IMG/VR virus record: IMGVR_UViG_3300049889_000013 | Location: 1-46,840 of that record | DNA length: 46,840 nt | Source of the DNA: a virus | Lineage: Duplodnaviria > Caudoviricetes | Direction: 5' to 3' (one strand) | Shown: positions 6,845 to 43,088 of the stretch, in pieces | Layout: every line of letters starts with the position of its first letter | Numbering within the stretch: the first letter of the stretch is position 1 | Notes under the pieces: model-generated | Seen by the model: only the letters and a program-made list of their open reading frames with translations | The model's database searches: none | Told to the model about the DNA's origin: nothing | Position numbers and translations under genes: made by a program

Positions 6845-7270
6845 CTACTTCTTCGCCGGCTCGGTCGGCTTTTTGTCGAGGAAAAATTGCCCGTCGCCCT
6901 TGGTCTCAAACACTGCCACCAGCTCTTTGAAGCCTCTCTGTAAGCTGAGTGGCAGAGGCCCGGCGTCCTCGCCGTTGTCCGGCGCGATGCGGCCCCATGC
7001 TGTCTTATCGGCTTCCGCCGTAGGAACGTTACCGCTGCGCTCGCGCCGAAAAGTTGTCGCGGCGGTGTGGGCGTGGGCGATGACGTGATCGGCCAGCATC
7101 TGGCGCTCGACGAGCCCCTTGAAGCCGACGGGGTCGTTGGCTTTGAGATGTCCGTAGAAGCGCCGCGCGTATCCGGCCACCAGCTCGTCTTCGAGCGCGT
7201 GACGCCACGCGGGGAGTGCCGGCGGCTTCTTCGCCGGCGGGTTTTTCTGCTGCTGCTGCTCTGCCATCAC
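6845..7270 (-). CDS. Hypothetical protein
   Basis: Coupled to the giant-gene stop (GTGATG); GGAGG SD. Confidence 0.65.
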   Translation of the reverse strand: MMAEQQQQKNPPAKKPPALPAWRHALEDELVAGYARRFYGHLKANDPVGFKGLVERQMLADHVIAHAHTAATTFRRERSGNVPTAEADKTAWGRIAPDNGEDAGPLPLSLQRGFKELVAVFETKGDGQFFLDKKPTEPAKK

Positions 7271-10200
7271 TTGCCTCCGGGGGTTGCGGGGTAGCGGGAT
7301 TTTCCACCTATGCCACGGGCTATATTAACCATCTGCGCCATGAGCACACGCAGCCGCTGCCGCTTGACCTCGGGGGTGAGGGCGTCCGATTCGTACACGC
7401 CGGTCATTGCCGCGCGCAGGTCCTTCAGCGCCTGGCCCGCGGCTTTGATCTGATCCGCTTTCTGCAGCACGTCCCGATTGCGCGCGATGTAGCTCTTGAG
7501 CTGATCGCCGCTGTAGTGCGGGATCGAGGCCTTCACACGGTCGAGGCGATCGGAGAGCGCGTAGAAGTCCGCCAGGCTCTGCGCGCTCGAGGGCTCCAGC
7601 TCGCGACCGAACATCATCTGCAGGCCGGGGATTGATTGCTTCCAATCGTCCGCCGGCGGCGGCGTCTTGGTGATGCCGGCGAGCGGGCGGAACACACCAT
7701 CGTCGATCGACTTGACCACCGAGCGCCCGAAGGTGCCGGTGTAGCCGTAGATCAGGTGATCGATGAGCAGCGGGCTCATGTTCAGGTGCTTCCCGATGAA
7801 CTTGGCGGTTTCGCTGGTGAAGCGCTTCTGCTGCAGCTCCGGCTCCAGCCGCTTGAGATCGTCGGGCACGATCGGCCGCTGGTTGAAGTAGTCGTAGTTG
7901 GCGGCCACTTCGTACAGAGGCTTGAGCGCGGTCACCATGTCGAGCGCCATGTTGAGCGCTGCGCCGGGCGACGGGATCAGCTCCTGCAGGAGCTTGGGAT
8001 CCTCATTCAGCGCGGCTTCGATCATCGCCGGCAGCGCGGTGCCGAGCACGAAGCCCCACTCCTGGGGCTTGCGGAAGCGAAACCAGCTCCGCGTCGTCTT
8101 GGGATCGCCGATCGGGAAGAGCCAATAGCCCTGCCGTTCGTTTGCGCGCTCCTGGTAATCGGGATTGTCTTTGCAAAGGTAATTGAGCAGCAGAGACATC
8201 GCCACCAGTGGCAGCGAGCGGATGAACATCGTGCCCGGCCGGTTCTTCACGTTGCGCGCGAAGGTGTCGGTGCCCTGGATCATCGCGTTGAAGAACGCGC
8301 GCAGCTTGCCGACGTCCTTGGCCCACGATCCGCCGCGGTTGAAGTCCACCGTCACGTCGCGCGCAGCCAGAGACGCGCGGGCGAGGCCTTCGCGGTTCAC
8401 GCCCTCCTTCTTCAGCGCCCGGGCAAACTCGCCGAGGCGCGTGGCGTCGTCGGATCCGTTGCTCAGCGCCTCCAGCAGATCGATGAATCGGGCCGGCATG
8501 TTCAGCCAGTGCTTCGCGCTGCCGAAGGCCGAGCGGTAGAGCTTGTGCATCTCGCGCTCGATCGGATCGTCCATCGAGCCCACCATGCCGGCGTGCGAGG
8601 CCTTGGAGTGCAGGTAGAGCTGGTAGGTCTCGTCCCGGCGCAGCAGGTGATAGAGCCCGACGGCGTTGTCCACGATCGGAAGGAAGCCATAGCGGGTTTG
8701 CATCCGCGCCGTGATCGTGTCGCGCATCACGTTGCCGGTCACAAAGTTGAGGTACAGCGTGAAGCCGCGGCGCATGATGCTCGCCGGCAGGGTCAGCACC
8801 CGGAGGATCAGGTTCTTGGAGTCGAGCGACGTCGTGCGCGCGGTGACCGCGTCGTAGAGCGCCGGATCGTGCAGCTGCCACACGTGGATCTTGCCGGCCA
8901 CGCGCAGGGCGATCTCCAGGTCCCGCGGGTTGTGCGCGATCGGCCGGAAGATCGTGAACGTCTGCTGCAGGTCGATCTTCGGCGGGATCGTGCCGCCAGG
9001 TCCCGACGGCTCGAAGTCGAGCGGATCCGCGCCGGCGGCGATGAGGTACTTTTTGATCTCTTCGAGCTGGCCACTGGTCGGCGCGATCGGCCGGGTGATC
9101 TTGTCGGCGTAGGTGTAATCCTTCCCTTTGCGGATCAGCTCGAACGCCAGCAGCCCGGCGCGGTTGCCGTCCACCAGGTCCACCATCCGGCGGATGTTTC
9201 GGATCATCGCCCCGATCGGGCGCTCGATGCGTCGGCCGCTGCCGCGGATCTGATGCAGCGCCTTGCCCTTGTCCACAAGGCCCGCGGAGCTGCCGTGCTG
9301 TTCCATGTAGTCGAGCACTCGGCTCCAGCGCACGTAACGCTGGTTGAGCGCGATCACAGCGTCGATCTGCCCGGGGGCGAAGAAGCCGCTTTGCTCCATG
9401 TAGCTCTTGAGCACGGCATGATTCCAACGCCACACACCCTGCGCCGCGGCGCGGAACGCCGGCGACTCATACTTGGCGATCGTCGCCTTGGCCTGATCCC
9501 AGGAGACGCCGAGCGGGCCGGCTTCGGGATCGACGACGTGCTTCAACTCGCGCACGTGTTTGCCCGTCGTCGGATCCACCGTCGCGGCCTGTGTGTACAG
9601 CTCGTCGGCGCGCTGCGCAACCAGGTAGGCCTCGAAGTTGCGGATCTGCTTTGCCGAGCGGATCCCGTTCTCGCGCATCACCGGCTCGATGCCCTTGGCC
9701 ACCGTCCGGCCGTCGCGATCGCGGACGCCGTACTTCACCCAGGAAAGCACCATGCCCGGATTGCCCGCGTTGAGCCGCGCCGCCACGTAGGCGTCGGCGT
9801 CGAACGTGTCGGGGAGCTGGCCGCCGCCGATGATGTCCTTGCGCATCCAGTCGAGCGGGGCAAAGTGATCGGCGATGTGGCGGTAGAGGTAGCTGTAAGC
9901 GCCCTCGTTGCCGCGCGGGCTGCGGATCGTCGGCCCGTCGTCGTCGAAGTTGATCTGACTCTCGAGCTTTTGGACGGGATCTTGCGCAAGGTACTGCGCG
10001 TACATTCCCTGCAGCTCTTTGATTGCCTGCCAAAGCTCCGGCTCTTTGAGCGTCTCGCCCTCGAACCAGGTGGAGTAACCCGGCGCCAGCGTCTGCGCCT
10101 GCACCGGGTCATACATGAAGATCCGGAACCACTCGGCCACACCTTCCTTGCGGACCTGCGCCTTGGTGTAGCTCTTGCGCGACGTGCGACGGCCGAGCGG

Positions 10201-13200
10201 CAGCAGCTCGGTGTCGAACGTCGCCGGCGGCTTGAGCCCGGTGATTCGATCGTCGATTGCGTGGCCCACTTCGTGCGCGAGCACCGCGATCTGATTGGCC
10301 ACGTGCTGCCGGATCAGCTTGTTCCAGTAGTACCCCAGCGCGCGCCGCTTGGGGCCGGCGAGGCGGCGCTGTTTGCCGACGGCGACGGCCAGCTTGAGCT
10401 TGTTGATCACGAAGTCTGTGATCTGCTGGCGGCTCATCGTCTGCGGTTGATGCTTCGCGCTCAGCACCGCCGGCGGGATGTTGGGCGTCGTCGCGTGGAG
10501 CTGGAGCTGCGGAGGCAGCTGGTCGACGATCGACGTCGGCAGCTCCGCCGGCTGGCCGCCACCTTCCGGCGGCGTGAAGAGATTGCGCTGGCTGCTTTTG
10601 CCGAACAGCGCTTTGACGGTCTCGATCTTCCCGCGCGGGACGTACAACCCGCTCACCACGTTCTCGCCCTGCTGCATCGTGACGTAGTGATTGCGCAGCG
10701 CCTGGGATCCGCTCTTGCCGTAGATGGCGTCCTGAATCACCGGGAGAGGGACCGCGTCCTTGGGGCGCGTCAGCAGTTTGCCCTGCAGGATCCCGTAGGT
10801 TTCGCCCGTCGTGCTTTCGACGGTGTGGATCTGCAGCGGGTGGTTGGTGTCGAGTTCGATCGACTGGCGGATCATGCCGCGGTTGCGCCGCGCCACTTTG
10901 CCGCCGGTCTTTGCCGACTCGATCGCCTCCAGCTCCTGCCAGCGCGCGTGTGCCTTGTCGTAGATCTCGTTGCCGAGCTGGTGCGGCAGCATCATCAGAT
11001 CATTCTGGAAGTCGCGCCAGCTCAGATCGTCCTCGTCGAGCTTGCCCTGGTGGAGAAGAAGATCCTGCTGCTGGCGCGGCAGTGCCCGCACGGTCTCGTT
11101 GATCGCGCGGTGCCACGTCGAGCTTTCCATGTCGAAGTCATTCAGCGCATCGCTCTCCGCGCCGGCGTCCTCTTGCCCTTTGCTGATGGCGCCCAGGCTC
11201 TTCATGCGCGCGGCGATCGTCGCCTGAAACTTGCGCTCCCCGGCGATCGGCGTGAAGATGGTCAGCGCGGCCGGGCTGGTCACCTGGTTGGCGCGGTCGA
11301 CGCGGCCGAGGGACTGCTTAAACTCCTTGCTGTCCCAATCCAGATCGAGCACCACCATGAACCGCCGGCCACTGCCCAGATCCTGCAGGTTGATCCCGGT
11401 CGTGCCCGCGGGGCTGATCACCGCCACCTTGCGCTTGCCGGATTGAAACTCTGCATTCTGCTCGATGCGCGCCTTGGGCGACGTCGCGCCGACGATCGCC
11501 GCCACGTTCTTCTCCCCGAACGCGTCGAGGATCTTCTGCAGGGGAGAGGGGCTCTTGTCGCGCCCGGTCGCTGCGAGCTGCTGGCGGATGGCTTTGAGGG
11601 CCGCGATCGCGTCGGGCTGATCTTCCCACTTCTGGATCTCACCTTTGGCGTCCTTCACCGCGCGCTGGGTGGGGATCGCGTCGAGCACGGCGCCGAGGTT
11701 GCCGCCCTGGCCGGTCAGATGCGTGTCACTGACGCCGAGGATCTTGAACACCACCTGCTCGCCGCGCGCGAGGGCCGCCTGCGCTTCGGCGATCGCCGCC
11801 GGCAGCCGGTACTCCACCAGCAGCCGCTTGATGAAGAAGATCGCCTGGCCATCCGGCCGCGGCGGGCTCCACAGCTGGCCCTTTTTCTTGGGGTGTGGCC
11901 ACTTCGAATTGTTCACCAGCTTCCGCGCCGACGCGTACAGGCGGATCGCGTGGTTGAGGTTCTCGGCCATGACGTCGTAGAGCGCCAGCTGCTCGGGCGT
12001 GACGGCCGCCTCGCGCATGTTGAATTCGAACCCACCGCGCCAGAAGTCGAGCGAGTGGTACGCGTTGTCCATTTTCAGCTCGCGCATGAGCTGCTCGATG
12101 ATCGGCGTGGCGATCGACTCGCGCCAGCTCCCCGCCTTGCTGATGCCGGTGGCGTTCTGCAGCCAGCCGTCGAAGGTCGACGTGCTGAGCTTCTCGGCCA
12201 TCTTCGGCGGATCCCACAGGCGCAGCCCGTACATGAACTTCAGCGCGGCGATGTCCGACGCCGGCGTGGCCGTCATGTAGACGAAGTGGCGCTGGCCGCT
12301 CGGCAGCAGTGCTTCATGCAGCAGCTCCAGGGCATTGGCGCGCTGGGTGTCGCCTTCGAGGTTCGAAAGCAGGTGCGCTTCGTCGACGATCACCAGGTCC
12401 GGGCGCCAGTCGGTGAAGGGCTTGAGGTACTTCACCAGGTTGAAGCTGTCGCCGAGCATCACCGTGGGCGCGTTTCGCGTCTGGTACTGCGTGAGGCCCG
12501 CCGGCTCCATGCCCGACGCGTTGACGATGCTCAGGCCCTGCGCGGCCAGCGGATCGAACGTCGCGCGCTGCTCGACGGTGAACGTGTTGATCAGGTCGGC
12601 GATGTTCTGACGGTTCTTGGTGAGAACAAGAATCTTGCGCTTGCCGGAGAGGCCGGCGAGGCTGCGGTAGATCTGGTCGGCGATCGTCGCGCCGATGACG
12701 CGCGACTTGCCCACGCCGACGTCGTCGGCGATCAGCGCGCCGGCGTTGGCGACGTGGATCCGGTACCCGATCGCGGCCGCTTGATCGCGCTGGGGGTCGG
12801 AGACGTCGGCGGCGGCGCGGGGGTCGAGCTCGTAGCCGGCGAGGTCCCCGGCGCGGACGCCGGCGAGGGCTTTTGATTCGACGAGAAGTCGGGGGTGATG
12901 ATGTCCCCGCCGCCACGGAGGAAGCGGAACATAAGGGCTAACCCGGTCGCTGCGGAGTGCGTCGAGATAATGCGCGGACTGTCCTGGTCCGAGCCACTCA
13001 GGTAACCCATCGCGTCGTCCAGGCTCGTCAGGAAGGCCTGCTCCCGATCCTTCACTTCCGGGAACCACGCCGGCGTTACCTGATCCTGGTCGAACGTCAG
13101 AACCTCCGACCAGCTCTCCCCCAGGTGCGGAGCCGTCCCCGGCCCCTCCTGTTGGAGTCGCTCCAGCACGTCCTTGAGCCGCGCTTGCCTTCCGAAGTCG

Positions 13201-16200
13201 ATCACTGGCCGCCTCTCGTTTGAACGGGGGAAGCTCGCCGATGGCGCTCTTCACGTCCTCATCGGCTGCCAGGTCGCTCCACAGCTTCGACAGCAGATCG
13301 GTGAAGCCGCTGTCCTCGACCGTGTAGCCCAGGTCCTTGAGGATCCCGCTCAGATCCGAGCGTACCCCTTCGGCCCACCGGCGCAACATCTTGTCGCCGG
13401 CTTCGGCCTGTTGTTCAAGGTGAAAAGTGGCAATCCGGGCAAGACGTTCCGCCACCGCGGGATCTTTGAGCAGCTCGGCGGGGTTGATCGATTGATCGCC
13501 GCCGGCGGTGGCCATGAACGTCGGGCCCTGGCCTGTGATCCGCCGCGGCATGTGCAGCGCGCCGCGCAGTGTCTGACTCATCAGCTCGGGATAGCTGAGC
13601 ATGTCGCGCAGCTCGTCGAGGGTGGAGAAGTACTTCTCGGGCCCGCCGCCGAAGAGACCGCCGCCCGCGCGCTCGAGCTTGCCGGCCGTCACGGGCTTGC
13701 CTGCTCGATCGGTGGGGACGTCGTTCTCGAACGCCGCGGCCCATGCTTTCGCCGGCGTCACTTGTGAATCGGTCGCGAAGGCAAAGGTGGTCTCGCCGGG
13801 CCGGAAGTTGCGCGCGTGATCCATGTAGGCGCGGATCCGCTCGCGCCAGCCCACGCTGTTGTCGTTGACCAGGCGGCGCAGCAGCAGCCGCGCGCGCTTC
13901 ATGTCCGACTCGGTGATCCGATCGGCCACCATCAGCTTCTGACCGTCGGCCGCCTCGCCCTTGAGCCAGGCATCCAGCGGGGCCTGCGCCGCGCGCCAGC
14001 GGAGGAAGCCGTACAGCGCCTGCTGCAGATCTGCGGTGAAGTCCCATTCGCGCCCGAGCGTCTTGGGGTAAACGATGCCGAAGAGGTTGCCGGTGATCTT
14101 GTTGGCCGTCGCCGCCGGCAGGTTGTCGAACACGCCGACGTCGGGAATCGCCACCGCCTGCAGGATGCGCTCAATGAGGCGCTTGCCGTCCTCGCTGAGC
14201 ATCCCGGTCTCGGGGTGCTCGAAGCGCGCGTACTCCTGTTTGGTGAGAACCTCGCTCTTGATCAGCCAGCTCTTGAGTTCGGCCACTTTCGCCGGTGTGC
14301 TCATCACTTCGCGGATCGATTCATCGTCGCCGAGCACCGACTGCAGGCGCTCCAGCGTGCCCGGGCTGTCGAGCAGGATCCGCGCGCGGCTGGCGGCGTC
14401 CATCGCGCCGCTCATCTCCTGCGTGCGTCCCTTCTGCAGCACCCGCACCAGCACGCGCATTCGCGCGGGGTCGTTGGTCTCTTCCTGGATCACGCGCACG
14501 AGAACCGGATCCTCGACGCCGGCGGCGTCCTCTTTGCGGATCCCGAATCGCTCGGCCGAGCCGATCACCAGGCTGCGGAAGTTGGTCGCGCGCGTGCTCT
14601 TGCCGTCGCCGCGCATCACACCGCCCATGCCGTACACGCGCTGGATGACCATCGCGCGCGAGTTGCCGCCCATGACGCGGCCGTTGGGCAGGATCATGGG
14701 CGGGCCGTTCACCGGGTCGGGGTTGTCGGTCAGCAGCCACACCGGGTTGAAGTCGAGATCGTTCTGCTGGACCTTGGCCTTCTCATCCTTCGAGTGCTGG
14801 TAATCGCGCTCCTGGACGTTGGGCGGGTACTTCTCGCTCGGCTTGAAGGTGTGCGCGTCGTGCGAGGGGATCAGATCCTTCGCCGACACGATCGCGTAGG
14901 CCGACGGCACCGGGTCGGTGGCGGTCTCGATCGGCTGCGCGCGGCCCACCAGCTGCTTGATCGCGGGGAGCTGCTCGACGGGCTCGATGCCCAGCGCCTT
15001 GCGCGCTTTGGCCTCCAGCTCGGGCGTGAGTTTGATGAAGCGGCCGGCGCGGCTGACTTTGATCTTGCCGTCGGCGCGGTGGGTGAACTGATACGGGCCC
15101 TGATTGACGATCTTGGATGCGCCCGGCTCGGTGATCGCCGGCGGGATCCACGTGGGCGTGCCTGTCGGGTTTCCCCCAGGTGGGAGATCGCCGGCGGTGG
15201 CCCTCACGCCAGCCGCCGGCTTCTCGTCGTTTAGTAGCCGCCCTTGCCCTTGCCGCTCTTCTTCGAGCCGCCCTTCTTCGCCGGCGGTCGAGCCGAGTTG
15301 CGCTTCGTCGTTGCCTTCGACTTCGCGCCCATCATCTTGGACTTGTTGGTTGCTGCCATGGTTGGTGCCTCCTTTCTCGGCGGGCAGTGTATCACCCGCG
15401 CGGGCCGGCTCCAGTCGCTCGACGGTTTCTTTTGCGCGCGCCGCCAGCTCGCCGGTTTTCACCGCTTCACCCTTGAGCTGATGAAGGAGATCTTTGTTGC
15501 CGGCCAATCCACTCTCGAGATCGGCAGCGACGGGCGCCTTCTCCGGCAGCCGGTTCTGCAGCTGACCCTTGAGCTGGTCGTAGTGCTTCAGCGCCTCTTT
15601 GAGCGGGAGGCGCGTGCCGTCCGGGAACACCACGGCCTCGACGTCGTCGGGGTGGACGTAGCTCTTCCCCTCGCTGGTGACTGCGATGTGGTTGACGAGC
15701 CCCTTCGCCGGCGTGCCCCGGTTGGTACCAGGCTTGAGCACAACCGCCACGGGGAGTTCAGAGGATCGTCCCACGGCGTAGGTGATGGCTGTAGAGGGGG
15801 TGTCGGAACCGAACCCGCCCGCTGGCACAAGCTCAGCGTCAATATCGCCAGAAAGGCGAGAAGGATGAATCCCGTCGCGCGCGATGAGCTGCAGATTTCG
15901 GGCGTCCGTGCCATGGATCACTTCTCCGGGTTTGACCGCGCGCATCAGGCCGGCCTTCTGCTCGGCGCGGTTCTTGATCATCGACGTGGGGGCCACGCCG
16001 GTCGGCTTCTTCACTTCCGTCTTGGTCGATCGCGCCGGCTCGGGCGCGCCGATCGCTTCGATGACGGGGACCTGTTTGAATCCGGCGTTTTGCGCCGCGG
16101 CGAGCTGATCCGCGCCGTCGAGCACCTGCCACCCGCCGTTGGCCAGCTTGCGAACGACGATCGGGGGGACCGCGTCCGATTGGTTCTCGGGGCCCGGTGC

Positions 16201-18777
16201 GAATTTGCGCATCCAGTGCTTGATGCCGTCGGGCGTGGGGCTGCCGGTGTCGAGGATCTGGTTGGTGGCGATCTGCGTCGTCTTGCCGAACTTCACCGAC
16301 GGATCCAGCTGCAGCCGGCTCTGCGCGCGGCTCTTCGCCGCCGTCATCGATGAGAGCTTCGGTTTCCAATCGGGCTGTCCCAGGTCGGCCGGCGGCGCCG
16401 GCAGCTTCCGGCCGCCGATCCCCTGTTCAGGTGAGGGCTCGATCCGCCGCGCCACTTCGGCGTCGGCCATGTCGGCCAGTGCCTTCGCGCGCTGCAGGAG
16501 CCCGGTGGTTTTGTCGCGCTCGCCGAGCAGCTCATCCATCAAGGCGCGGTTCTTGCCGTCGCCGGCGATCGCGTCGAGGGCCGGCTTGGTGAAGGAGCGC
16601 GTGCCGTCGGGTCCTTTGGGCGCGTACTGATCGAGCAGATTGCGCGCGCGAGCGATCGACGCTTCGCGCGGGCTCAGCAGATCCGTGTTGGCCGGCTTGG
16701 GCTTGAGTTCGGGCGGGGTCTCGAACGTCGCCTGCTTTAAGAGTGCGTCGATCGCGGCCTGGTCGGTATCGACGCCACCTGCAGGGCCGGCGGCGGCGGT
16801 GCCTGTTGCCGCCGTCGGTGCTCCTGCAGGCTGCTTCGCCGACTGGTCAACGCTCGCGCGTTTGAATTTCGAAAGCAGGTCCGCCGTGCTGGCCAGATCC
16901 TTCAACGTGACTTTGTTGGCATCCATCGCCTGCCAGAAGTCTTTCCCGTTGCTGTAGTCATTGCGCGCTTTGGCCACGCGAAGGGCAGACTCCTTCTGCT
17001 CGGTGCTCAGCTCGATCCCGACGTCGCCGAAGGGCTTGGTGAAGTCGGATCCCACGGCGTTGCGCAGCTGGCGGTTGACCCACAGATCGCGCACGCCGCG
17101 CAACAGCAGGGTTGGGGTGTGCTCCAGGACCGGGTTGAGCATCATCCCCATCGCCGCCGTCATCCGGCTGTCCTGGCGGCTCATGTCCAGCGACTGCAGC
17201 GCGGCCAGCGGGTGACCGTCGATCAGGTGATTGACCGCCGTGAACACAGGCATCTCCGCGCCGCCGGCGAGAGAGCTTGCAGCGAGCTTGGAGAGGATCC
17301 CCGCGTTGTTGAACGCCGTCGGTGCGACCGCGCGGCCGGCCGCCTGAACCGCGCCGCCGATCGACTCTTCGCCGGCGACGGCCGCCACGGCGTTTCGAAT
17401 CGGTTGGCCGATCGCGGGCCCCAGCGCTTTGCCGAGGAACCATGCCGGCGAGCCGGGCGTCATGTAGCCGAGCGTGCTGGCCAGCATCGAGTAGATCGGA
17501 TGCTGTGTCTGGTACCCGGCGCGGAAGGCGTCGTACTTCTCTTTGTTGTCCGCGCCGCCGAGGCGGGCGATCTGCGCGGGGAGCCCCAGATCTGCAGCGT
17601 TCACCCATTCGTTGAACGCCGCCCACAGAGGATGCCGCGCCGCGGCCGCCGCGCCGGCGTTGCCGACTTCGACCTGGTGAGCGGCCTGCACGATCGCCTG
17701 ATCGTTTCCCGCCTGGCCGGTGTCATCGTCTTGAAGGGGGCCGGACGTCTGGCGGCGCTGGATCCGCTGCGCCGCCGAGCTGGCCAGCGCGGGAAGCATC
17801 GCCTTGGCGATCGCGTCCCGATACAGATCCGGGTTGCGCTTCACCAGCTCCAGAATCGTGCCGTCGGACTGATCCTTGAGCCCCGGGCCGAAGTTGGGGT
17901 CGGTCTTCAGCGCCTGCACGACGAGCTGCTGGCCCTGGTGCTCCAAAACCTGCGTGTCGAACTTGCTGAGCTGATCATCCGACAGATCCTTCGCCGCGGG
18001 ATACTTCGCGCGCAGGGCCTGAACGCTGGCGCTCTTCTCGGCCTGCTCGCGCTGCTCGATCGTGCCTTTGAGCACTTCGGGCATCGGCTGGCCGTCGGGG
18101 ATGAGCGCGCGGGCTTCGTCGATCATCGATTGATCGTGAAGGAGCGGCCGATCGGTGTTGTGGAACGCCGCCTGCTGCAGCTGGTCGATCGGCACCGCGT
18201 TGCCGGCGGCGTCGGTGTGATCGCCGGCGAAGTCGAACACCTGCAGATCCGGGGGCAGGGGCTGATTCGGATACTTCACCATGAACGCGCGGCGCAGCTT
18301 CTGCCACGTGTCGTAATCGAGTGACTGAGGGACCGCGCCGTTGATCGCGCCGCGGACGTCGCCGCCGACGGTCGTTCGCGGCTGCATCGCCTGCTGCAGA
18401 TCCGCCGCGGCCGCGTTCACCCGGGTGTTGTCGAGTTCTGGTACCTGGAGCTGGCTGAGGCGCTTGAGGTACGGCGCGAGGTTGTCGCCGGCGTCCATCG
18501 CCGTGTGCAGTTTGAGCGTGGCTTCGGCGACGTCGAACGGATCGCCGCCCTTTTGCATCGTCACGCCACTGGAGTCGCCGACGATCTGCGTCTGGCGCAT
18601 GTCCATGCTCGGCGCGGGCGGCTGCGCGTCCGGCAGCTCGGCAACCGCCGTCGAGCCGGTGAAGTTGTTGGTCACCGTGTCGCCGGCGGGGAGTTGTGTC
18701 GTTCCCTCCGGCTGCGCGCGCATCGTCTGCGCGGTCGATTGGCTCAGCTGCTGCTCGGCGAGGTCAAAAGCATCCAT
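7267..18777 (-). CDS. Giant polyvalent (probably virion-ejected) protein, 3836 aa
   Basis: ParB-like (PPIVVRK...VLDG), possible ART-like (IHGT..NL..I..DGI), DdrB-like ParB (LIPSHD...QERDY...GPP...GGNSR), Strawberry-notch-type SF2 helicase (DDVGVGKS, DEAH, TATP, GINLQ, QSLGRVDR), zincin HEVGH, LPD38-like C-terminus (RDVTVDF.RGG..FFNA..QG). Confidence 0.85.
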   Translation of the reverse strand: MDAFDLAEQQLSQSTAQTMRAQPEGTTQLPAGDTVTNNFTGSTAVAELPDAQPPAPSMDMRQTQIVGDSSGVTMQKGGDPFDVAEATLKLHTAMDAGDNLAPYLKRLSQLQVPELDNTRVNAAAADLQQAMQPRTTVGGDVRGAINGAVPQSLDYDTWQKLRRAFMVKYPNQPLPPDLQVFDFAGDHTDAAGNAVPIDQLQQAAFHNTDRPLLHDQSMIDEARALIPDGQPMPEVLKGTIEQREQAEKSASVQALRAKYPAAKDLSDDQLSKFDTQVLEHQGQQLVVQALKTDPNFGPGLKDQSDGTILELVKRNPDLYRDAIAKAMLPALASSAAQRIQRRQTSGPLQDDDTGQAGNDQAIVQAAHQVEVGNAGAAAAARHPLWAAFNEWVNAADLGLPAQIARLGGADNKEKYDAFRAGYQTQHPIYSMLASTLGYMTPGSPAWFLGKALGPAIGQPIRNAVAAVAGEESIGGAVQAAGRAVAPTAFNNAGILSKLAASSLAGGAEMPVFTAVNHLIDGHPLAALQSLDMSRQDSRMTAAMGMMLNPVLEHTPTLLLRGVRDLWVNRQLRNAVGSDFTKPFGDVGIELSTEQKESALRVAKARNDYSNGKDFWQAMDANKVTLKDLASTADLLSKFKRASVDQSAKQPAGAPTAATGTAAAGPAGGVDTDQAAIDALLKQATFETPPELKPKPANTDLLSPREASIARARNLLDQYAPKGPDGTRSFTKPALDAIAGDGKNRALMDELLGERDKTTGLLQRAKALADMADAEVARRIEPSPEQGIGGRKLPAPPADLGQPDWKPKLSSMTAAKSRAQSRLQLDPSVKFGKTTQIATNQILDTGSPTPDGIKHWMRKFAPGPENQSDAVPPIVVRKLANGGWQVLDGADQLAAAQNAGFKQVPVIEAIGAPEPARSTKTEVKKPTGVAPTSMIKNRAEQKAGLMRAVKPGEVIHGTDARNLQLIARDGIHPSRLSGDIDAELVPAGGFGSDTPSTAITYAVGRSSELPVAVVLKPGTNRGTPAKGLVNHIAVTSEGKSYVHPDDVEAVVFPDGTRLPLKEALKHYDQLKGQLQNRLPEKAPVAADLESGLAGNKDLLHQLKGEAVKTGELAARAKETVERLEPARAGDTLPAEKGGTNHGSNQQVQDDGREVEGNDEAQLGSTAGEEGRLEEERQGQGRLLNDEKPAAGVRATAGDLPPGGNPTGTPTWIPPAITEPGASKIVNQGPYQFTHRADGKIKVSRAGRFIKLTPELEAKARKALGIEPVEQLPAIKQLVGRAQPIETATDPVPSAYAIVSAKDLIPSHDAHTFKPSEKYPPNVQERDYQHSKDEKAKVQQNDLDFNPVWLLTDNPDPVNGPPMILPNGRVMGGNSRAMVIQRVYGMGGVMRGDGKSTRATNFRSLVIGSAERFGIRKEDAAGVEDPVLVRVIQEETNDPARMRVLVRVLQKGRTQEMSGAMDAASRARILLDSPGTLERLQSVLGDDESIREVMSTPAKVAELKSWLIKSEVLTKQEYARFEHPETGMLSEDGKRLIERILQAVAIPDVGVFDNLPAATANKITGNLFGIVYPKTLGREWDFTADLQQALYGFLRWRAAQAPLDAWLKGEAADGQKLMVADRITESDMKRARLLLRRLVNDNSVGWRERIRAYMDHARNFRPGETTFAFATDSQVTPAKAWAAAFENDVPTDRAGKPVTAGKLERAGGGLFGGGPEKYFSTLDELRDMLSYPELMSQTLRGALHMPRRITGQGPTFMATAGGDQSINPAELLKDPAVAERLARIATFHLEQQAEAGDKMLRRWAEGVRSDLSGILKDLGYTVEDSGFTDLLSKLWSDLAADEDVKSAIGELPPFKREAASDRLRKASAAQGRAGATPTGGAGDGSAPGGELVGGSDVRPGSGNAGVVPGSEGSGAGLPDEPGRRDGLPEWLGPGQSAHYLDALRSDRVSPYVPLPPWRRGHHHPRLLVESKALAGVRAGDLAGYELDPRAAADVSDPQRDQAAAIGYRIHVANAGALIADDVGVGKSRVIGATIADQIYRSLAGLSGKRKILVLTKNRQNIADLINTFTVEQRATFDPLAAQGLSIVNASGMEPAGLTQYQTRNAPTVMLGDSFNLVKYLKPFTDWRPDLVIVDEAHLLSNLEGDTQRANALELLHEALLPSGQRHFVYMTATPASDIAALKFMYGLRLWDPPKMAEKLSTSTFDGWLQNATGISKAGSWRESIATPIIEQLMRELKMDNAYHSLDFWRGGFEFNMREAAVTPEQLALYDVMAENLNHAIRLYASARKLVNNSKWPHPKKKGQLWSPPRPDGQAIFFIKRLLVEYRLPAAIAEAQAALARGEQVVFKILGVSDTHLTGQGGNLGAVLDAIPTQRAVKDAKGEIQKWEDQPDAIAALKAIRQQLAATGRDKSPSPLQKILDAFGEKNVAAIVGATSPKARIEQNAEFQSGKRKVAVISPAGTTGINLQDLGSGRRFMVVLDLDWDSKEFKQSLGRVDRANQVTSPAALTIFTPIAGERKFQATIAARMKSLGAISKGQEDAGAESDALNDFDMESSTWHRAINETVRALPRQQQDLLLHQGKLDEDDLSWRDFQNDLMMLPHQLGNEIYDKAHARWQELEAIESAKTGGKVARRNRGMIRQSIELDTNHPLQIHTVESTTGETYGILQGKLLTRPKDAVPLPVIQDAIYGKSGSQALRNHYVTMQQGENVVSGLYVPRGKIETVKALFGKSSQRNLFTPPEGGGQPAELPTSIVDQLPPQLQLHATTPNIPPAVLSAKHQPQTMSRQQITDFVINKLKLAVAVGKQRRLAGPKRRALGYYWNKLIRQHVANQIAVLAHEVGHAIDDRITGLKPPATFDTELLPLGRRTSRKSYTKAQVRKEGVAEWFRIFMYDPVQAQTLAPGYSTWFEGETLKEPELWQAIKELQGMYAQYLAQDPVQKLESQINFDDDGPTIRSPRGNEGAYSYLYRHIADHFAPLDWMRKDIIGGGQLPDTFDADAYVAARLNAGNPGMVLSWVKYGVRDRDGRTVAKGIEPVMRENGIRSAKQIRNFEAYLVAQRADELYTQAATVDPTTGKHVRELKHVVDPEAGPLGVSWDQAKATIAKYESPAFRAAAQGVWRWNHAVLKSYMEQSGFFAPGQIDAVIALNQRYVRWSRVLDYMEQHGSSAGLVDKGKALHQIRGSGRRIERPIGAMIRNIRRMVDLVDGNRAGLLAFELIRKGKDYTYADKITRPIAPTSGQLEEIKKYLIAAGADPLDFEPSGPGGTIPPKIDLQQTFTIFRPIAHNPRDLEIALRVAGKIHVWQLHDPALYDAVTARTTSLDSKNLILRVLTLPASIMRRGFTLYLNFVTGNVMRDTITARMQTRYGFLPIVDNAVGLYHLLRRDETYQLYLHSKASHAGMVGSMDDPIEREMHKLYRSAFGSAKHWLNMPARFIDLLEALSNGSDDATRLGEFARALKKEGVNREGLARASLAARDVTVDFNRGGSWAKDVGKLRAFFNAMIQGTDTFARNVKNRPGTMFIRSLPLVAMSLLLNYLCKDNPDYQERANERQGYWLFPIGDPKTTRSWFRFRKPQEWGFVLGTALPAMIEAALNEDPKLLQELIPSPGAALNMALDMVTALKPLYEVAANYDYFNQRPIVPDDLKRLEPELQQKRFTSETAKFIGKHLNMSPLLIDHLIYGYTGTFGRSVVKSIDDGVFRPLAGITKTPPPADDWKQSIPGLQMMFGRELEPSSAQSLADFYALSDRLDRVKASIPHYSGDQLKSYIARNRDVLQKADQIKAAGQALKDLRAAMTGVYESDALTPEVKRQRLRVLMAQMVNIARGIGGKSRYPATPGGK
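12732..13205 (-). CDS. Candidate nested +1-frame gene within the giant gene (157 aa)
   Basis: GAGAGG SD 6 nt before GTG. The first ~110 codons are GC3-rich and protein-like, while the main frame there is largely a Gly-rich linker with atypical codons. Confidence 0.55.
   Translation of the reverse strand: MIDFGRQARLKDVLERLQQEGPGTAPHLGESWSEVLTFDQDQVTPAWFPEVKDREQAFLTSLDDAMGYLSGSDQDSPRIISTHSAATGLALMFRFLRGGGDIITPDFSSNQKPSPASAPGTSPATSSTPAPPPTSPTPSAIKRPRSGTGSTSPTPAR
15231..15359 (-). CDS. Candidate nested +1-frame Lys-rich peptide (42 aa)
   Basis: TGnTACACT extended -10 (15394-15386), AAGGAGG SD (15374-15368), ATG...TAA: MAATNKSKMMGAKSKATTKRNSARPPAKKGGSKKSGKGKGGY. Confidence 0.65.
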   Translation of the reverse strand: MAATNKSKMMGAKSKATTKRNSARPPAKKGGSKKSGKGKGGY

Positions 18778-18796
18778 GCGCTTGTCCTGTGGGCGT

Positions 18797-19819
18797 TCAT
18801 CCGGTTGGTTGCGTCGTCGGGTTGGCGGCCGTCACGACGGGGGCACGTTCGCCGCGCTGCGCCGCGGCGCGGGCCTTGGCTGCAGATCCGTACTTCTTCA
18901 CCAGGTAGAGCACGTCGGCCTGACCGACGGGCGGCACGTTCGTGATCGACGTCGAGCCGGCGGCGCTCCCGCCGGCGGCCGCGGCGGGCGCCGGCGCGGA
19001 GCTGGTGTCTGAGCCGCCGCTGACCAGGTCGAGCATTTGCTGGTTGAGATCGTCGAGCTGGCCCTGCAGCGCCTTCTGCCCCGCGTCATCGCCCAGGAGC
19101 ATCGGGCTGGCGAGGCGCTTCTGCAGGTTGGAGATCTGATCGTGGAGGATCTTCGCCTTGCCGCGGGTCTCGGCCTGCTGCTGCGAGACCGTCATGCGCT
19201 TGTTGTCCATGTCGAGCCGCGCCTGCTCGTAGGGCGTGAGCTGGTTGTCGGTCGTGTGGCTGGCGGCGCGGAGCGCGAGCTGCTCGTTGACCGTCTGATC
19301 TTCAAAGGGGTTCTTGCCGCCGACGATCTGCGCGCGGTACCGGATGGCTTCTTCGGGGCGCAGCGCTCCCTGCTGCTCCATCTGCTGCACGTACCCCATG
19401 AGCTGCTGCTGCTGCGGATTGAGATAACCGCCGCCGGCGAGCACGGCCGAGGATCCGCCGCGGCCGCCGCCCATCGGTGGCGATTCACCCGCGGGGTGAT
19501 AGATCGTTGCGCCGGGACCGCCGCCCTGACCGCCGACGAGAGCGCCGTTGGTGTCGATCATCGCCGGCGTCGACGCCTGAGGCGCGAGCTGCTCGGTGTA
19601 GCCGCCGCCGACTTGGCCGCCGGCGTAACCCTGCACCTGGTCATTGAGCTGCTGGCTGTGCTGGTCGGCCGCGGCCATGCGCGTGTTGAGGCCCTGCTGC
19701 GCCAGCTGCTGAGCCTCCAGCGACTGCTGCATCTGATCGCGGTTGGTGGCGTATCTCGACGCCTGGCTGCCGAGCGTGGCGACCAGCGCCGGATCGTCGT
19801 ATCGAAGAACAACGGGCAT
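18797..19819 (-). CDS. Putative internal virion/ejection protein
   Basis: Gln/Gly/Ala-rich and helical; lies between the tail genes and the giant gene. Confidence 0.55.
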   Translation of the reverse strand: MPVVLRYDDPALVATLGSQASRYATNRDQMQQSLEAQQLAQQGLNTRMAAADQHSQQLNDQVQGYAGGQVGGGYTEQLAPQASTPAMIDTNGALVGGQGGGPGATIYHPAGESPPMGGGRGGSSAVLAGGGYLNPQQQQLMGYVQQMEQQGALRPEEAIRYRAQIVGGKNPFEDQTVNEQLALRAASHTTDNQLTPYEQARLDMDNKRMTVSQQQAETRGKAKILHDQISNLQKRLASPMLLGDDAGQKALQGQLDDLNQQMLDLVSGGSDTSSAPAPAAAAGGSAAGSTSITNVPPVGQADVLYLVKKYGSAAKARAAAQRGERAPVVTAANPTTQPTG

Positions 19820-19825
19820 GGATCA

Positions 19826-20377
19826 CTACACCTTTCGCGCCGAGCTGCCGATCGTCGTCTGACCCAGGGGGATCAGCGGCGAGCCGCCAGTGCGTGGCGC
19901 GCTGAAGAGGTTGGCGTACATCGAGAGATCCGGGCCTTGCTCCTGCACGTTGTTGAGCACGCCCATTTGCAGATTGGCCTTGTCACCTTGGATCTGCTGA
20001 CCGCGCTGGAAGGCGGCCGTCTGCGCGTTGGTCTGCATCGCGTTCTGCGCCGAGCTGTTGAACAGCCCGCGGCTGATGAGGCTGGCGTTGCCCTGCCCGA
20101 GCTGCTGGCGGTAGAGGTTGTTGCTCTGCGTCGTCTGCGCCGCGCCGAATTGCTTGGCCAGGCCCATCATCTTGTCGAAGCGAGCCTGCGCGTCGGTGTT
20201 CGCTTTGTTGAACTGGTTGACCAGGCCCTGCGCGAGCGCGCTGTCACCGTTCTGGCCGCTGCCACCCATGAGCCCGCCGCCGCCGCCGTAGAGCGAAGCG
20301 GATCCGCCGCCGCCGTTGGGCGTGACGCTGAGCACGCGCGGCTGCAGGAGCGAATCGTTCAAATCCATCATGCCCAT
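19826..20377 (-). CDS. Putative internal virion/ejection protein
   Basis: Gly/Gln/Asn-rich, with an SRGLFNSS segment; position fits podoviral ejection proteins. Confidence 0.55.
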   Translation of the reverse strand: MGMMDLNDSLLQPRVLSVTPNGGGGSASLYGGGGGLMGGSGQNGDSALAQGLVNQFNKANTDAQARFDKMMGLAKQFGAAQTTQSNNLYRQQLGQGNASLISRGLFNSSAQNAMQTNAQTAAFQRGQQIQGDKANLQMGVLNNVQEQGPDLSMYANLFSAPRTGGSPLIPLGQTTIGSSARKV

Positions 20378-40487: not shown

Positions 40488-40819
40488 CAAGATCCCCCGG
40501 CCGGCGGCGGTGGCGACTTGTCTGTCAGCTGGCCGATCGCCTGATCCAGCGCGTCCAGATAGGGCCCTTCGCCGGCGGCCGTCGTGCGGAACATCTTCAG
40601 CGCCTGCAGCACGGCCGCGTGAGTCTCGGCGTTCATCAGCAGGCTGCAGAGCCACACTCCTTGCGCAGCGCCAGCTCTCCCGACGAGCGCGTCCGCCAGC
40701 TCGATCGCCTGCACCGGCTCCATAACAACGCCCGTGCCCAAGGCATCAAGCACGACCTCGCCCTTTGCGTTGTTGCTGACCGACACCGCGCCGCCGGCGG
40801 GATCTGGTTGGGTGACCAT
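40487..40819 (-). CDS. Hypothetical protein
   Basis: TGATG coupling; AAGGA SD. Confidence 0.6.
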   Translation of the reverse strand: MVTQPDPAGGAVSVSNNAKGEVVLDALGTGVVMEPVQAIELADALVGRAGAAQGVWLCSLLMNAETHAAVLQALKMFRTTAAGEGPYLDALDQAIGQLTDKSPPPPAGGS

Positions 40820-42660
40820 CACTTTCCTTTCTTCTTCGGGGCCTTCTTCTTCGACGTCGGCTTGCACGTCATGTTGTGGATCTGCTCGGCCGCCGGCGTT
40901 CCGGTCAGCTCGTTGCCGCTGTCCACCATGTGATTGCCGCCGGGGATCTGGCAGCACGGGTTGTTGGCCAGGAAGTTCTCGATCGACTTCACCGCGGCGG
41001 CGATCTTCGGCTTCTCGGTCCCCGTCGCGCGCTTCAGGTTCTTCTTCAAGCCGTTCAGCTCGATGTGTGCGGCGGTGCGGATCGCGTAAGCGCGTGACGT
41101 GTAGCCAGTGTCGGTCACGCTGACCGGGCTGCTGGATCCGCCCTGGTGAATGTGCCTGTCGTGCCCGAATCGCCATAGGCCATCGACATTGCTTTTGATC
41201 ACGCGCACGATGACGTGATCGCTCCCCTTCGAGTGGATCCGCACGTTCTCGACCTGCTGCACGTAGACGCCGTGATCATTCACGCCGGGATCATCGATCA
41301 TCAGCTTCGGATCGATGTCCCTGGCCAGCAGATCCTTGATCGTGCGCTCGCGCGTGTCGTCGAGATTGTTGTGCTCACGATCGAGCGCGACGCCGTTCAC
41401 GAATGCCTCGGCCGCCTCGCGCGACTTCTTGCCGGCGTGGTACATCCGCGCCCAGTAGAGGTTTGGGAAAATGTCGAATTGCGCCGGCAGCTCCACATCC
41501 TCTTTCTTCGCCAGCGTGGTGATCGAGCTGTGCAGGTTCATCGCCCACTGAAACCAGCTCTGCTTTTGTCCGCTGTCCGCCTTCATCTCCGGGATCCACT
41601 GCTGGAGAGGACCGCCGAGCCTCCAGCCAGCGCCCGGTGAATCGTTCGGGCCCTTCTCCATCGCGTGCGCGAGCGTGCTGGAGCCGACGGCATAACCGCC
41701 GGCCATGTTCGCCTCTGCAACCTCCGCTGGCTCGTGTCCGCCCGCGTCGATCGCCGCCTTCCGCTGAACGACGGCCGGGCGCTTCCACTCCAGGAGGATC
41801 TCGCTGTCGCCGCTGCCGATGATCCAGGTCTCTTCATCGCGCGAGACGTGCAGGCCGGCCAGGTCAACATCTTCCGGCGCGATCTTGTGCGAGCCCGGGA
41901 TCTCGTCGAAGCGGAGGTACTGCGGTTTGTCCCACTTCTCGATCGGGATCAGCGGGCGCAGGATCGCGCTCGTGAGGAAGTCGCTGCCGCGGGTGAAATT
42001 GCGCAGCGCGATGCACACGTGGGGCTCGGGCGGCTCCTGGCCGGCTTCGCCACTGCTGATCATCAGCGGCGGGCTGTTCAGCACCGCGCGGAAGGGTGCC
42101 GGCTCGTCGTGCGTGCGCGAGGCGATCAGATTCTGCCGGCTCTCTTCGACCAGCTCGGCCGTGAGCTGCAGATCCTCAGGCGCGAGGGCTCCAGATTCAG
42201 ATAGCAAGACGCGCGCGGTCCACTTCTGCCCTTCGGTTCGCGGCGGCAATGTAGAGATGTCGTTGACATCTTTACTTTCCGGTTGCGCCGCGGCGGGCTC
42301 GCTCTCCAGCACAGGCAGCGCGATCGGCAGGCCTCCGTTGCTCGGCGGCGGTGCGATCTGCAGCGGGAAGAGATCCTGCTGCGGATCGTCGGGCTCCATC
42401 AGGACCTCACGCGCTTCGCGCTCGAGGATCTTCTTTCGACCCTTCGCCTGATTCAGCTCCTTCTGCAGCTCGGCCTCGCGCGCGACGGCCTTCTGCCACT
42501 CGGCGACTTTGGCCGCGTGCTTGAGATGCTTCCGCAGCGTCATGCCTTCGATCCCCTGCTCGGCGTAGAACTGCTGGATCTGCAGGTTCACTGCCTTCTG
42601 CGCCTCCATGCCACGATTTACAAACGCCTCCAGCGTCTGCAGCTCATTGGTCTCGGTCAT
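40819..42660 (-). CDS. Large hypothetical protein (~613 aa)
   Basis: GGGAG SD, TGATG coupling; N-terminal coiled coil and QQDLF motif; no family recognised. Confidence 0.7.
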   Translation of the reverse strand: MTETNELQTLEAFVNRGMEAQKAVNLQIQQFYAEQGIEGMTLRKHLKHAAKVAEWQKAVAREAELQKELNQAKGRKKILEREAREVLMEPDDPQQDLFPLQIAPPPSNGGLPIALPVLESEPAAAQPESKDVNDISTLPPRTEGQKWTARVLLSESGALAPEDLQLTAELVEESRQNLIASRTHDEPAPFRAVLNSPPLMISSGEAGQEPPEPHVCIALRNFTRGSDFLTSAILRPLIPIEKWDKPQYLRFDEIPGSHKIAPEDVDLAGLHVSRDEETWIIGSGDSEILLEWKRPAVVQRKAAIDAGGHEPAEVAEANMAGGYAVGSSTLAHAMEKGPNDSPGAGWRLGGPLQQWIPEMKADSGQKQSWFQWAMNLHSSITTLAKKEDVELPAQFDIFPNLYWARMYHAGKKSREAAEAFVNGVALDREHNNLDDTRERTIKDLLARDIDPKLMIDDPGVNDHGVYVQQVENVRIHSKGSDHVIVRVIKSNVDGLWRFGHDRHIHQGGSSSPVSVTDTGYTSRAYAIRTAAHIELNGLKKNLKRATGTEKPKIAAAVKSIENFLANNPCCQIPGGNHMVDSGNELTGTPAAEQIHNMTCKPTSKKKAPKKKGK

Positions 42661-43037
42661 CACTTGCTCCCGCGGCCGCGGCCGCGCTTGGTGGTTTCGT
42701 TGACGGGTTTGTCCGCTGCCGGCGGGAAGGGATGGCGGCCGAGCGTGAGCTGGCCGATCGCTTCCTCCTTTGTGCCTTTGAACTCGTGAAAGTCCACGCT
42801 GACCCAGCGCTGCAGCCGCTCGATGTAGAGCAGCTCCTGGATCACGCGTCGATTGCAGCCTGGGCAGATGTAGCCGCGGGCGCGGCGGTATCGATTGCCT
42901 CCATCGACCCACGGCACATCGAAGACGTTCTCGGGCGGAAGCGGCGCGCCACACACTTCGTTGCCGCAGTAGTGTTGGTCGATCGACGTCAGGGGCGGAA
43001 CATCACGGACGTCTCTGGGCATCGGGGGGATTGACAT
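42660..43037 (-). CDS. Zinc-ribbon hypothetical protein
   Basis: AGGAGG SD; CGNEVC...CPGC. Confidence 0.65.
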   Translation of the reverse strand: MSIPPMPRDVRDVPPLTSIDQHYCGNEVCGAPLPPENVFDVPWVDGGNRYRRARGYICPGCNRRVIQELLYIERLQRWVSVDFHEFKGTKEEAIGQLTLGRHPFPPAADKPVNETTKRGRGRGSK

Positions 43038-43059
43038 CGGGCCTCCTGTCAAAGAGGCC

Positions 43060-43088
43060 ATACTATGCCGCGGCATAGTCACTCACAA
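43060..43088 (-). promoter_or_regulatory. sigma70-like promoter with perfect operator palindrome
   Basis: TTGTGA-17 nt-TAGTAT; ACTATGCCGCGGCATAGT perfect 18-bp palindrome at 43062-43079. Confidence 0.7.

Follow-up and report, generated by a model that had tools for sequence, protein, structure and literature searches.

Candidate small genes nested in the +1 frame of a giant phage polyvalent gene

Two small open reading frames, designated ORF A and ORF B, are located in the +1 frame of a giant phage gene, in the linkers of the polyvalent protein, and show the behaviour of real genes under selection, judging from their codon signal and their recurrence, as the first-pass annotation of this DNA had suggested. 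ORF A is very probably a separately translated gene, as predicted from its sequence features. There is about an even chance that its product is a small basic DNA-binding head peptide similar to protein J of phiX174, made in excess over the giant protein by means of its own signals; the DNA-binding reading draws on the composition of the peptide and on the genomic context of look-alike mini-genes.

The giant gene and its nested frames

The window, namely the whole stretch of 46,840 bp analysed here, is a virus record of IMG/VR carrying an integrase gene and a sigma-factor-like gene (Pfam/PHROGs). The genes for terminase, portal, major head protein and adaptor are located on the minus strand, upstream of the giant gene and on the same strand. 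The features are as follows.

7267..18777, minus strand: host giant gene, 11.5 kb, encoding a phage polyvalent protein of 3,836 aa
aa 870-906 of the giant protein: ParB_N-like region (Pfam)
14488..14916, minus strand, aa 1288-1430: ddrB-ParB domain (PF18763, E 2.4e-13), downstream of the ORF A linker
11059..12897, minus strand, aa 1961-2573: Strawberry-notch-type helicase module (PF13872, PF13871, PF00271)
aa 3545-3696 of the giant protein: LPD38 domain (PF18857)
15409..15414, minus strand: putative -35-like hexamer CTGGAG, 17 nt before TACACT
15386..15394, minus strand: putative -10-like site TG-A-TACACT
15368..15374, minus strand: Shine-Dalgarno (SD) sequence AAGGAGG, 8 nt before ATG
15231..15359, minus strand: ORF A, nested in the +1 frame of 7267..18777, 42 codons from the ATG at 15359 to the TAA ending at 15231
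15190..15220, minus strand: GC-rich hairpin without a U-tract, beginning 10 nt past the stop of ORF A
12732..13205, minus strand: ORF B, nested +1-frame ORF of 157 aa with a GTG start and a weaker SD, GAGG

PF18763, PF13872/PF13871 and PF18857 were all detected above cut-off in one polypeptide, and the gene has the late-gene setting of a portal-terminase phage. By its sequence, the giant protein is a phage polyvalent protein as defined in the main text of PMC5512222, with packaging into the virion predicted for it by class. As an integrase is present and one relative is located inside the complete chromosome of Fontivita pretiosa, the phage group appears to be temperate, and we infer that the virus is a temperate phage of Tepidisphaerales. 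The helicase region of the giant protein had no match in GenBank phages, and a locus search with the single ParB-region sequence found nothing. A GC-rich inverted repeat is located directly after the giant gene (7217..7239), with a T-run on the plus strand.

The ORF A peptide is rich in Lys, Ala, Gly, Ser and Thr, with 11 Lys, 2 Arg and no Asp or Glu among its 42 residues (net charge +13), and terminates in KGKGGY. The elements named by the first-pass annotation (TG-A-TACACT, AAGGAGG, an ATG after 8 nt and the TAA) were all found on the minus strand; it was also confirmed that all 11 Lys codons are AAG, that acidic residues are absent, and that the main frame over ORF A is an acidic linker rich in E, Q, D and G. 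The term "histone-like" used for the peptide did not hold beyond composition, as no histone fold, HU fold or linker-histone-like family was matched in Pfam or PHROGs. Neither ORF A nor its versions in two relatives matched any Pfam or PHROGs family, ORF A had no match in GenBank phages, and its atlas matches (0.81-0.85) were unnamed and below the usable range.

The codon usage along all 3,836 codons of the giant gene was scored in 40-codon windows, with 18 other genes of the window used to train the model. Only over ORF A (one window) and ORF B (five windows) did the +1 frame exceed the main frame. The CAI of ORF A was 0.74 in its own frame, compared with 0.47 in the host frame and 0.74 for the giant gene overall. 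The start of ORF A is the only out-of-frame ATG or GTG of the giant gene with an SD match of at least 6, and AAGGAGG is the longest SD match among the 25 starts listed in the window. ORF A is wholly inside a longer ORF of the same strand, in another frame and with its own initiation signal, and both codon usage and synonymous resampling pointed to selection on the nested frame. When the linker was resampled synonymously with its amino acids fixed, 11 Lys were reached in 0/5,000 cases, and SD, start and open frame occurred together in 27/5,000; third-position A in the main frame over ORF A numbered 15, compared with 4.2 expected. The open frame alone was obtained in 4,889/5,000 resamplings (98%), and frame openness is thus no evidence for ORF A. 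Another SD-led Lys-rich mini-ORF of this kind was sought, giving one weak candidate in the window (SD match of 4, at 2327) and none in the F. pretiosa relative with its flanks or in the IMG/VR relative described below.

ORF B had a CAI of 0.61 in its own frame compared with 0.32 in the host frame, with the coding-like signal limited to the first ~110 codons. Its tail overlaps the start of the helicase module, and the C-terminal conservation of ORF B is explained by the helicase frame; an invariant WFP requires rare codons in the main frame. Testing the substitution pattern of ORF B gave a weak result (identity 0.36 vs 0.31 for residues 1-68, and 0.54 vs 0.72 for residues 69-110), and over its linker substitution counts guided by the main frame were uninformative and those guided by ORF B weak. 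The product is predicted to be a small helical protein (model pLDDT 65), for which no fold match in BFVD was found at E<=0.001. The atlas matches at 0.90 shared only 108-119 features and were not accepted. No homolog was identified among 10 candidates, and a single-sequence locus search was empty. A profile search against 1.84 billion proteins returned seven matches, which were the ORF of the IMG/VR relative itself, one apparently frameshifted relative and low-complexity sequences.

Recurrence in homologous giant genes and signals around ORF A

Three full-length homologs of the giant protein showed 53-58% identity over aa 1270-1690: L001 in the F. pretiosa chromosome, L002 in a Tepidisphaeraceae MAG, and L003 in IMG/VR (L007 and L008 being the same contig). 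No relatives as close as 80-95% identity turned up. The matching linker contains a 26-aa basic ORF in L001 (GTG start, SD match of 8, ending in KAGY) and a 40-aa basic ORF in L003 (ATG start, SD match of 6, without a GY end). The Lys count of each was reached in 0/5,000 synonymous resamplings, and an SD of equal length in L003 arose in 4,383/5,000. The counterpart was absent from the 30.5 kb searched in L002, so that ORF A would be dispensable or replaced there. The three peptides share composition with no alignable sequence, only 5 of 46 columns being invariant. ORF B with an SD-like site was found in all four genes (the window, L001, L002 and L003), at the start of the helicase module in each. 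The conservation of SD, start and stop in homologs, on which the first-pass annotation had staked its reading, thus held for ORF B in 3/3 homologs and for ORF A in 2/3, failing in L002. In L003, ORF A is located ~480 aa before the ParB domain, and an insert of ~400 aa between the two (aa ~1300-1700), absent from the other three genes, looks by eye like a methyltransferase.

These results bear on the possibility that ORF A is a by-product, in which a Glu/Gln/Gly-rich linker in a GC-rich gene, read in the +1 frame, simply yields Lys, Ala and Arg together with SD-like words, and no product exists. The ease with which the frame stays open and the SD of L003 arises, as well as the lack of a family match, would suit such an origin. 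However, the Lys count, the A-ending codons, the SD with its start and the hairpin were not reproduced with the linker amino acids fixed, the same feature set appears in two relatives whose linkers are unalignable, and another nested family exists as free-standing genes (see below). Among all the explanations considered, this is the one to which we give the least credence.

The TACACT upstream of ORF A is the sole sense-strand match to TAYAMT in the 46.8-kb window. CTGGAG-17-TACACT is common to the window and L003 with unrelated spacers, and L001 has TTGAAG-17-GAGACT. An extended -10 element had been proposed here; the site itself is present, but the TG is not kept in the relatives, and the recurring element is a -35/-10-like pair with a 17-nt spacer, seen in all three copies of ORF A. 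Resamplings matched a pattern for this pair in 9, 3 and 0 of 500 cases, counts that are optimistic as the same three sites had served to define the pattern. With the plain sigma-70 consensus, comparison with random in-gene positions gave 0.01 for the window, 0.11 for L003 and 0.19 for L001, and only the window site was unusual; it tied for the top score among the 42 TAnnnT sites of the window. A strict sigma-70 scanner detected no promoter in 7000..20000, and the pattern occurred 6 times in the host genome compared with 5 for a control. The promoter of ORF A is predicted to be real with reasonable confidence, and a promoter of host-sigma type would suit expression in the lysogen no less than late expression, as far as the sequence indicates.

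A promoter-SD-start layout like that of ORF A was also observed at 43088..42660 on the minus strand of the window, where TTGTGA-17-TAGTAT is followed by AGGAGG and an ATG at 43037. The ORF starting there encodes 125 aa with a Cys-motif and overlaps the start region of ORF 40819..42954. In the host chromosome (G001), an identical TTGACG-17-TATACT precedes near-identical long ORFs at three places (L231, L232 and L233), probably representing a repeated element.

The hairpin after the ORF A stop gave z-scores of -3.83 in the window, -2.55 in L001 and -3.38 in L003. In the window, it was the most stable of the 459 50-nt windows of the gene, and 0/500 synonymous resamplings were as stable. At the same length, the L003 hairpin ranked within 2/535 windows and 16/500 resamplings, and that of L001 within 31/471 windows, being matched by 404/500 resamplings; at 60 nt the figure for L001 was 0/150. 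Compared with 150 random in-gene 60-nt windows, all three hairpins ranked in the top 0-1.3% for stability. An intrinsic terminator, consisting of a hairpin plus a U-tract, was not found after ORF A, as the strong hairpin has no U-tract. The idea that translation of the giant protein restarts in frame past ORF A by coupling was discarded, since no SD or start was seen by eye past the stop in the window, L001 or L003.

Around the start of ORF B, an SD-sequestering hairpin was considered and rejected (z +1.1 to -0.7). The Leu codon before this start (13226..13231, minus strand, in the window) is the rare CTT in 4/4 genes (CTTCC), and an explanation of this conserved codon by a hairpin failed. In L002, a TACACT (at 14412) precedes the start of ORF B by 71 nt and is the only one in that giant gene; in L003, the second TACACT of the gene (at 16862) precedes this start by 124 nt; no TACACT-type hexamer precedes ORF B in the window or L001. 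It is thus conceivable that the selected element is an internal promoter for ORF B and the genes downstream, with ORF A serving as a leader ORF that protects the transcript and whose sequence is unimportant. The two hexamers, in particular that of L002 where ORF A is missing, would agree with this, as would the poor conservation of the ORF A peptide. The strong and repeated selection for Lys codons against the codon bias of the gene, the strong hairpin after the ORF A stop, and the lack of the hexamer in the two other genes argue against it, making it very improbable.

Nested +1 frames and look-alike genes elsewhere

The first-pass annotation had called for other phage polyvalent genes to be scanned for internal SD-led ORFs in linkers. 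From 25 aligned ddrB-ParB proteins, 139 confirmed viral loci were obtained, of which the best 80 were kept; the host gene was present in 85/88 loci, which were reduced to 52 at 80% identity. A nested ORF was counted when it had an SD match of at least 4, was at least 20 codons long, and scored above zero in the nested frame as well as higher there than in the host frame. The arrangement proved to be common, with 21 nested ORFs in 14/52 ddrB-ParB genes, all of them in +1 and none in +2, compared with 0.6 (+1) and 0.6 (+2) expected from synonymous shuffles of the 52 genes. Seven of the 21 come from the window and the three relatives, and one (L043, codon 49) is an apparent mis-called 5' end, leaving 13 candidates in 9/48 distant genes. 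As a control, the same loci supplied 196 other long ORFs, in which 10 (+1) and 1 (+2) nested ORFs were counted compared with 2.4 and 0.8 in shuffles, several of these being apparently in shadow or mis-called frames; three large control genes had no nested ORF, and 14 ORFs dropped as shadows contained four. In 401 Planctomycetota genomes, ddrB-ParB was found in three. One of the two new genes contained a nested +1 ORF of 93 aa, and the second (GC3 0.44) had none.

An own promoter was rejected as a general feature of nested ORFs, as only 1/20 scored at p<=0.05, and a 3' hairpin was partial (7/20 in the top 5%). In the genes of this phage, stops are scarcer in the -1 frame (1.09 vs 2.53 per 100 codons). 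Read-through in that register is thereby favoured, but this alone does not account for 21 to 0.

Further nested +1 ORFs were observed in L023 (9795-9953, 11265-11384 and 13383-13565) and L011 (9009-9176 and 9657-9965), and also in the ddrB-ParB genes of L037, L058, L042, L063, L013 and L092, with up to three per gene; the nested peptides of L058 and L042 are alike. As candidates were also seen outside ddrB-ParB hosts, in genes of 1,316 and 1,438 aa (L029 15096-15287 and L040 4060-4215), nesting may extend to other large virion genes.

The nested peptides of L009 and L011 are homologous, and called proteins included 13 relatives of them; searches of GenBank phages with two other nested peptides were empty. 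This family was found at 42 viral loci (35 non-redundant), of which 27 are free-standing and 8 nested. Each of the eight lies in +1 relative to a long ORF, and one of them belongs to the locus of the query itself; the hosts vary (ddrB-ParB+RadC, SLT, InPase+RadC and others; 3/8 without Pfam match). Nine nested copies did not form one clade (p-AU 0.008, in a weak tree of 54 columns). By sequence, a nested frame can thus belong to an ordinary gene family, and the distribution suggests repeated capture.

The variety of hosts is relevant to another explanation, in which the basic peptide serves the giant protein as a dedicated partner, for instance a chaperone, an inhibitor of the ParB or helicase domain, or a counter-ion of the acidic linker, by analogy with Rz1 and Rz. 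Both nested ORFs are located just upstream of a catalytic domain, ORF B invariably so, and embedded spanin pairs form a complex (PMC6139136). On the other hand, the sequence of ORF A is barely conserved while the adjoining domains are, the distance to the ParB domain in L003 is long, and the L009/L011 family occurs in hosts with different domains and is mostly free-standing. We consider a partner role improbable for ORF A; it is more plausible for ORF B.

The C-terminus of ORF A led to a class of free-standing genes. The pattern KGKGGY-stop matched at 65 viral loci (41 non-redundant), and an ATG-led basic leader was present at 13/41 compared with 0/20 when the pattern was shuffled (p 0.006; the shuffled control was not matched for SD). 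None of the 13 was nested. With one GTG-started case added by hand, the resulting 14 loci were compared with 23 loci picked to represent the other KGKGGY matches; 11/14 mini-genes had a terminase, portal, scaffold or head gene no more than 1.5 kb away, compared with 5/23 (p 0.002), and after merging related loci the bias was 7/10 compared with 5/22 (p 0.02). The stop overlaps a downstream ATG in 13/14, and GGAGG lies in the Gly codons in 5/14, so the ending appears to double partly as the start signal of the next gene. The Gly codons of these endings vary synonymously, and ORF A keeps the ending without a downstream start. ORF A of the window shares only these six terminal residues, in low-complexity sequence, with the free-standing genes, and its stop has no ATG overlap; the L001 version ends differently, as described above, and that of L003 has no such end.

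The free-standing Lys-rich KGKGGY ORFs of 13-31 aa were observed at L138, L142, L147, L154, L155, L159 and L167, and further ones at L174, L176, L177, L184, L193, L198 and L199, with nearly all stops overlapping the next start. Several were followed by another small basic ORF.

The location of the mini-genes also weighs on the idea that ORF A is a real unit of moron type, expressed in the lysogen or early from a host-sigma promoter, whose unpackaged peptide tunes host or prophage expression via nucleic acid or ribosomes. The -35/-10-like site, the strong SD and the 3' hairpin do resemble a self-contained cassette, the phage group is temperate with ORF A patchily present (2/3 homologs), and the free-standing look-alikes lack a hairpin save for 1/14. 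The clustering of the look-alikes in head and packaging modules (11/14) speaks against it, as do the lack of a U-tract terminator and the putative nature of the promoter, and we regard this explanation as possible but rather unlikely.

Proposed role and comparison with known systems

For the head-peptide reading, ribosomes would start at the internal SD of ORF A when translating the late message, and the internal -35/-10 site would probably yield a short transcript from which the peptide is made as well. The U-less hairpin would stabilise or mark the 3' end and the long message would not be cut off. Many copies of the peptide would be made for few copies of the giant protein, and the peptide would bind phage DNA and neutralise its charge during head assembly, as a small basic internal virion protein. 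As the CAI is higher in the nested frames of both ORF A and ORF B, the nested frame looks ancestral and the linker of the giant gene de novo; ORF A would be the older frame and the acidic linker a by-product of the giant gene reading through a small gene. This direction of overprinting is inferred from codon usage, and old de novo genes can also reach genome-like codon usage. With somewhat less than even confidence, we extend this to giant polyvalent genes in general, which may grow by read-through of small neighbours kept as +1 cassettes, with the linkers overprinted and ORF A a captured J-protein-like DNA counter-ion head peptide of an unrecognised class.

Gene callers suppress nested ORFs, and small phage proteins encoded within the largest late genes are likely to be missing from annotations. 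If linkers represent read-through of captured genes, they would provide a testable route for domain accretion by polyvalent proteins, and recoding or trimming of linkers would delete other genes. The F. pretiosa B-254 lysogen (L001) carries the cassette, which makes the claim directly testable. A class of basic head-module peptides of 13-42 aa would bear on the neutralisation of densely packed DNA in tailed phages.

The polyvalent proteins of Iyer et al. 2017 (PMC5512222) have the same ddrB-like ParB, Strawberry-notch helicase and LPD38 domains as the giant gene and are predicted there to be packaged, and an LPD38 protein is described as detected in phi24B virions (10.64898/2026.04.10.717836). 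The main text of PMC5512222, external supplements aside, contains none of the terms "overlap", "linker", "promoter" and "small protein", and nested genes are not described in it. In agreement with the first-pass annotation, which knew of no description of the arrangement, no report of nested genes in polyvalent genes was found in the literature searched, subscription journals not being covered. TnpV may be hidden in polyvalent genes of conjugative elements; a literature search on that name gave nothing on nesting.

Protein J of phiX174, a small basic protein inside the capsid and involved in DNA packaging (PMC11945456), serves as a functional model for ORF A; J comes from an ssDNA microvirus and has a stand-alone gene, and no sequence relationship is claimed. 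As in the overprinted viral genes treated in PMC8227390, two frames share one stretch in ORF A and ORF B, and codon usage serves as a guide to the older frame.

The closest precedent for the arrangement is Rz1 of lambda, an embedded spanin gene in the +1 frame of Rz, which like ORF A is a small gene contained entirely in a larger phage gene and is missed by gene callers; stop read-through is discussed as a route to the embedding of spanin genes (PMC6139136). ORF A is not a spanin of this type, as it has no Cys for a lipobox and only one residue of LIVFWY. Rz1 is the lipoprotein partner of a host gene of ~150 aa, whereas the host of ORF A encodes 3,836 aa and contains, in its interdomain linkers, two nested genes unrelated to each other; a promoter-like site and a hairpin accompany ORF A. 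The spanins had no +1/-1 bias in that survey (PMC6139136), in contrast to the 21/21 +1 frames of the ddrB-ParB genes. Embedded +1 genes are thus known from Rz1, and what is new is that the linkers of a giant late gene contain several small genes unrelated to each other, of which one has a full cassette.
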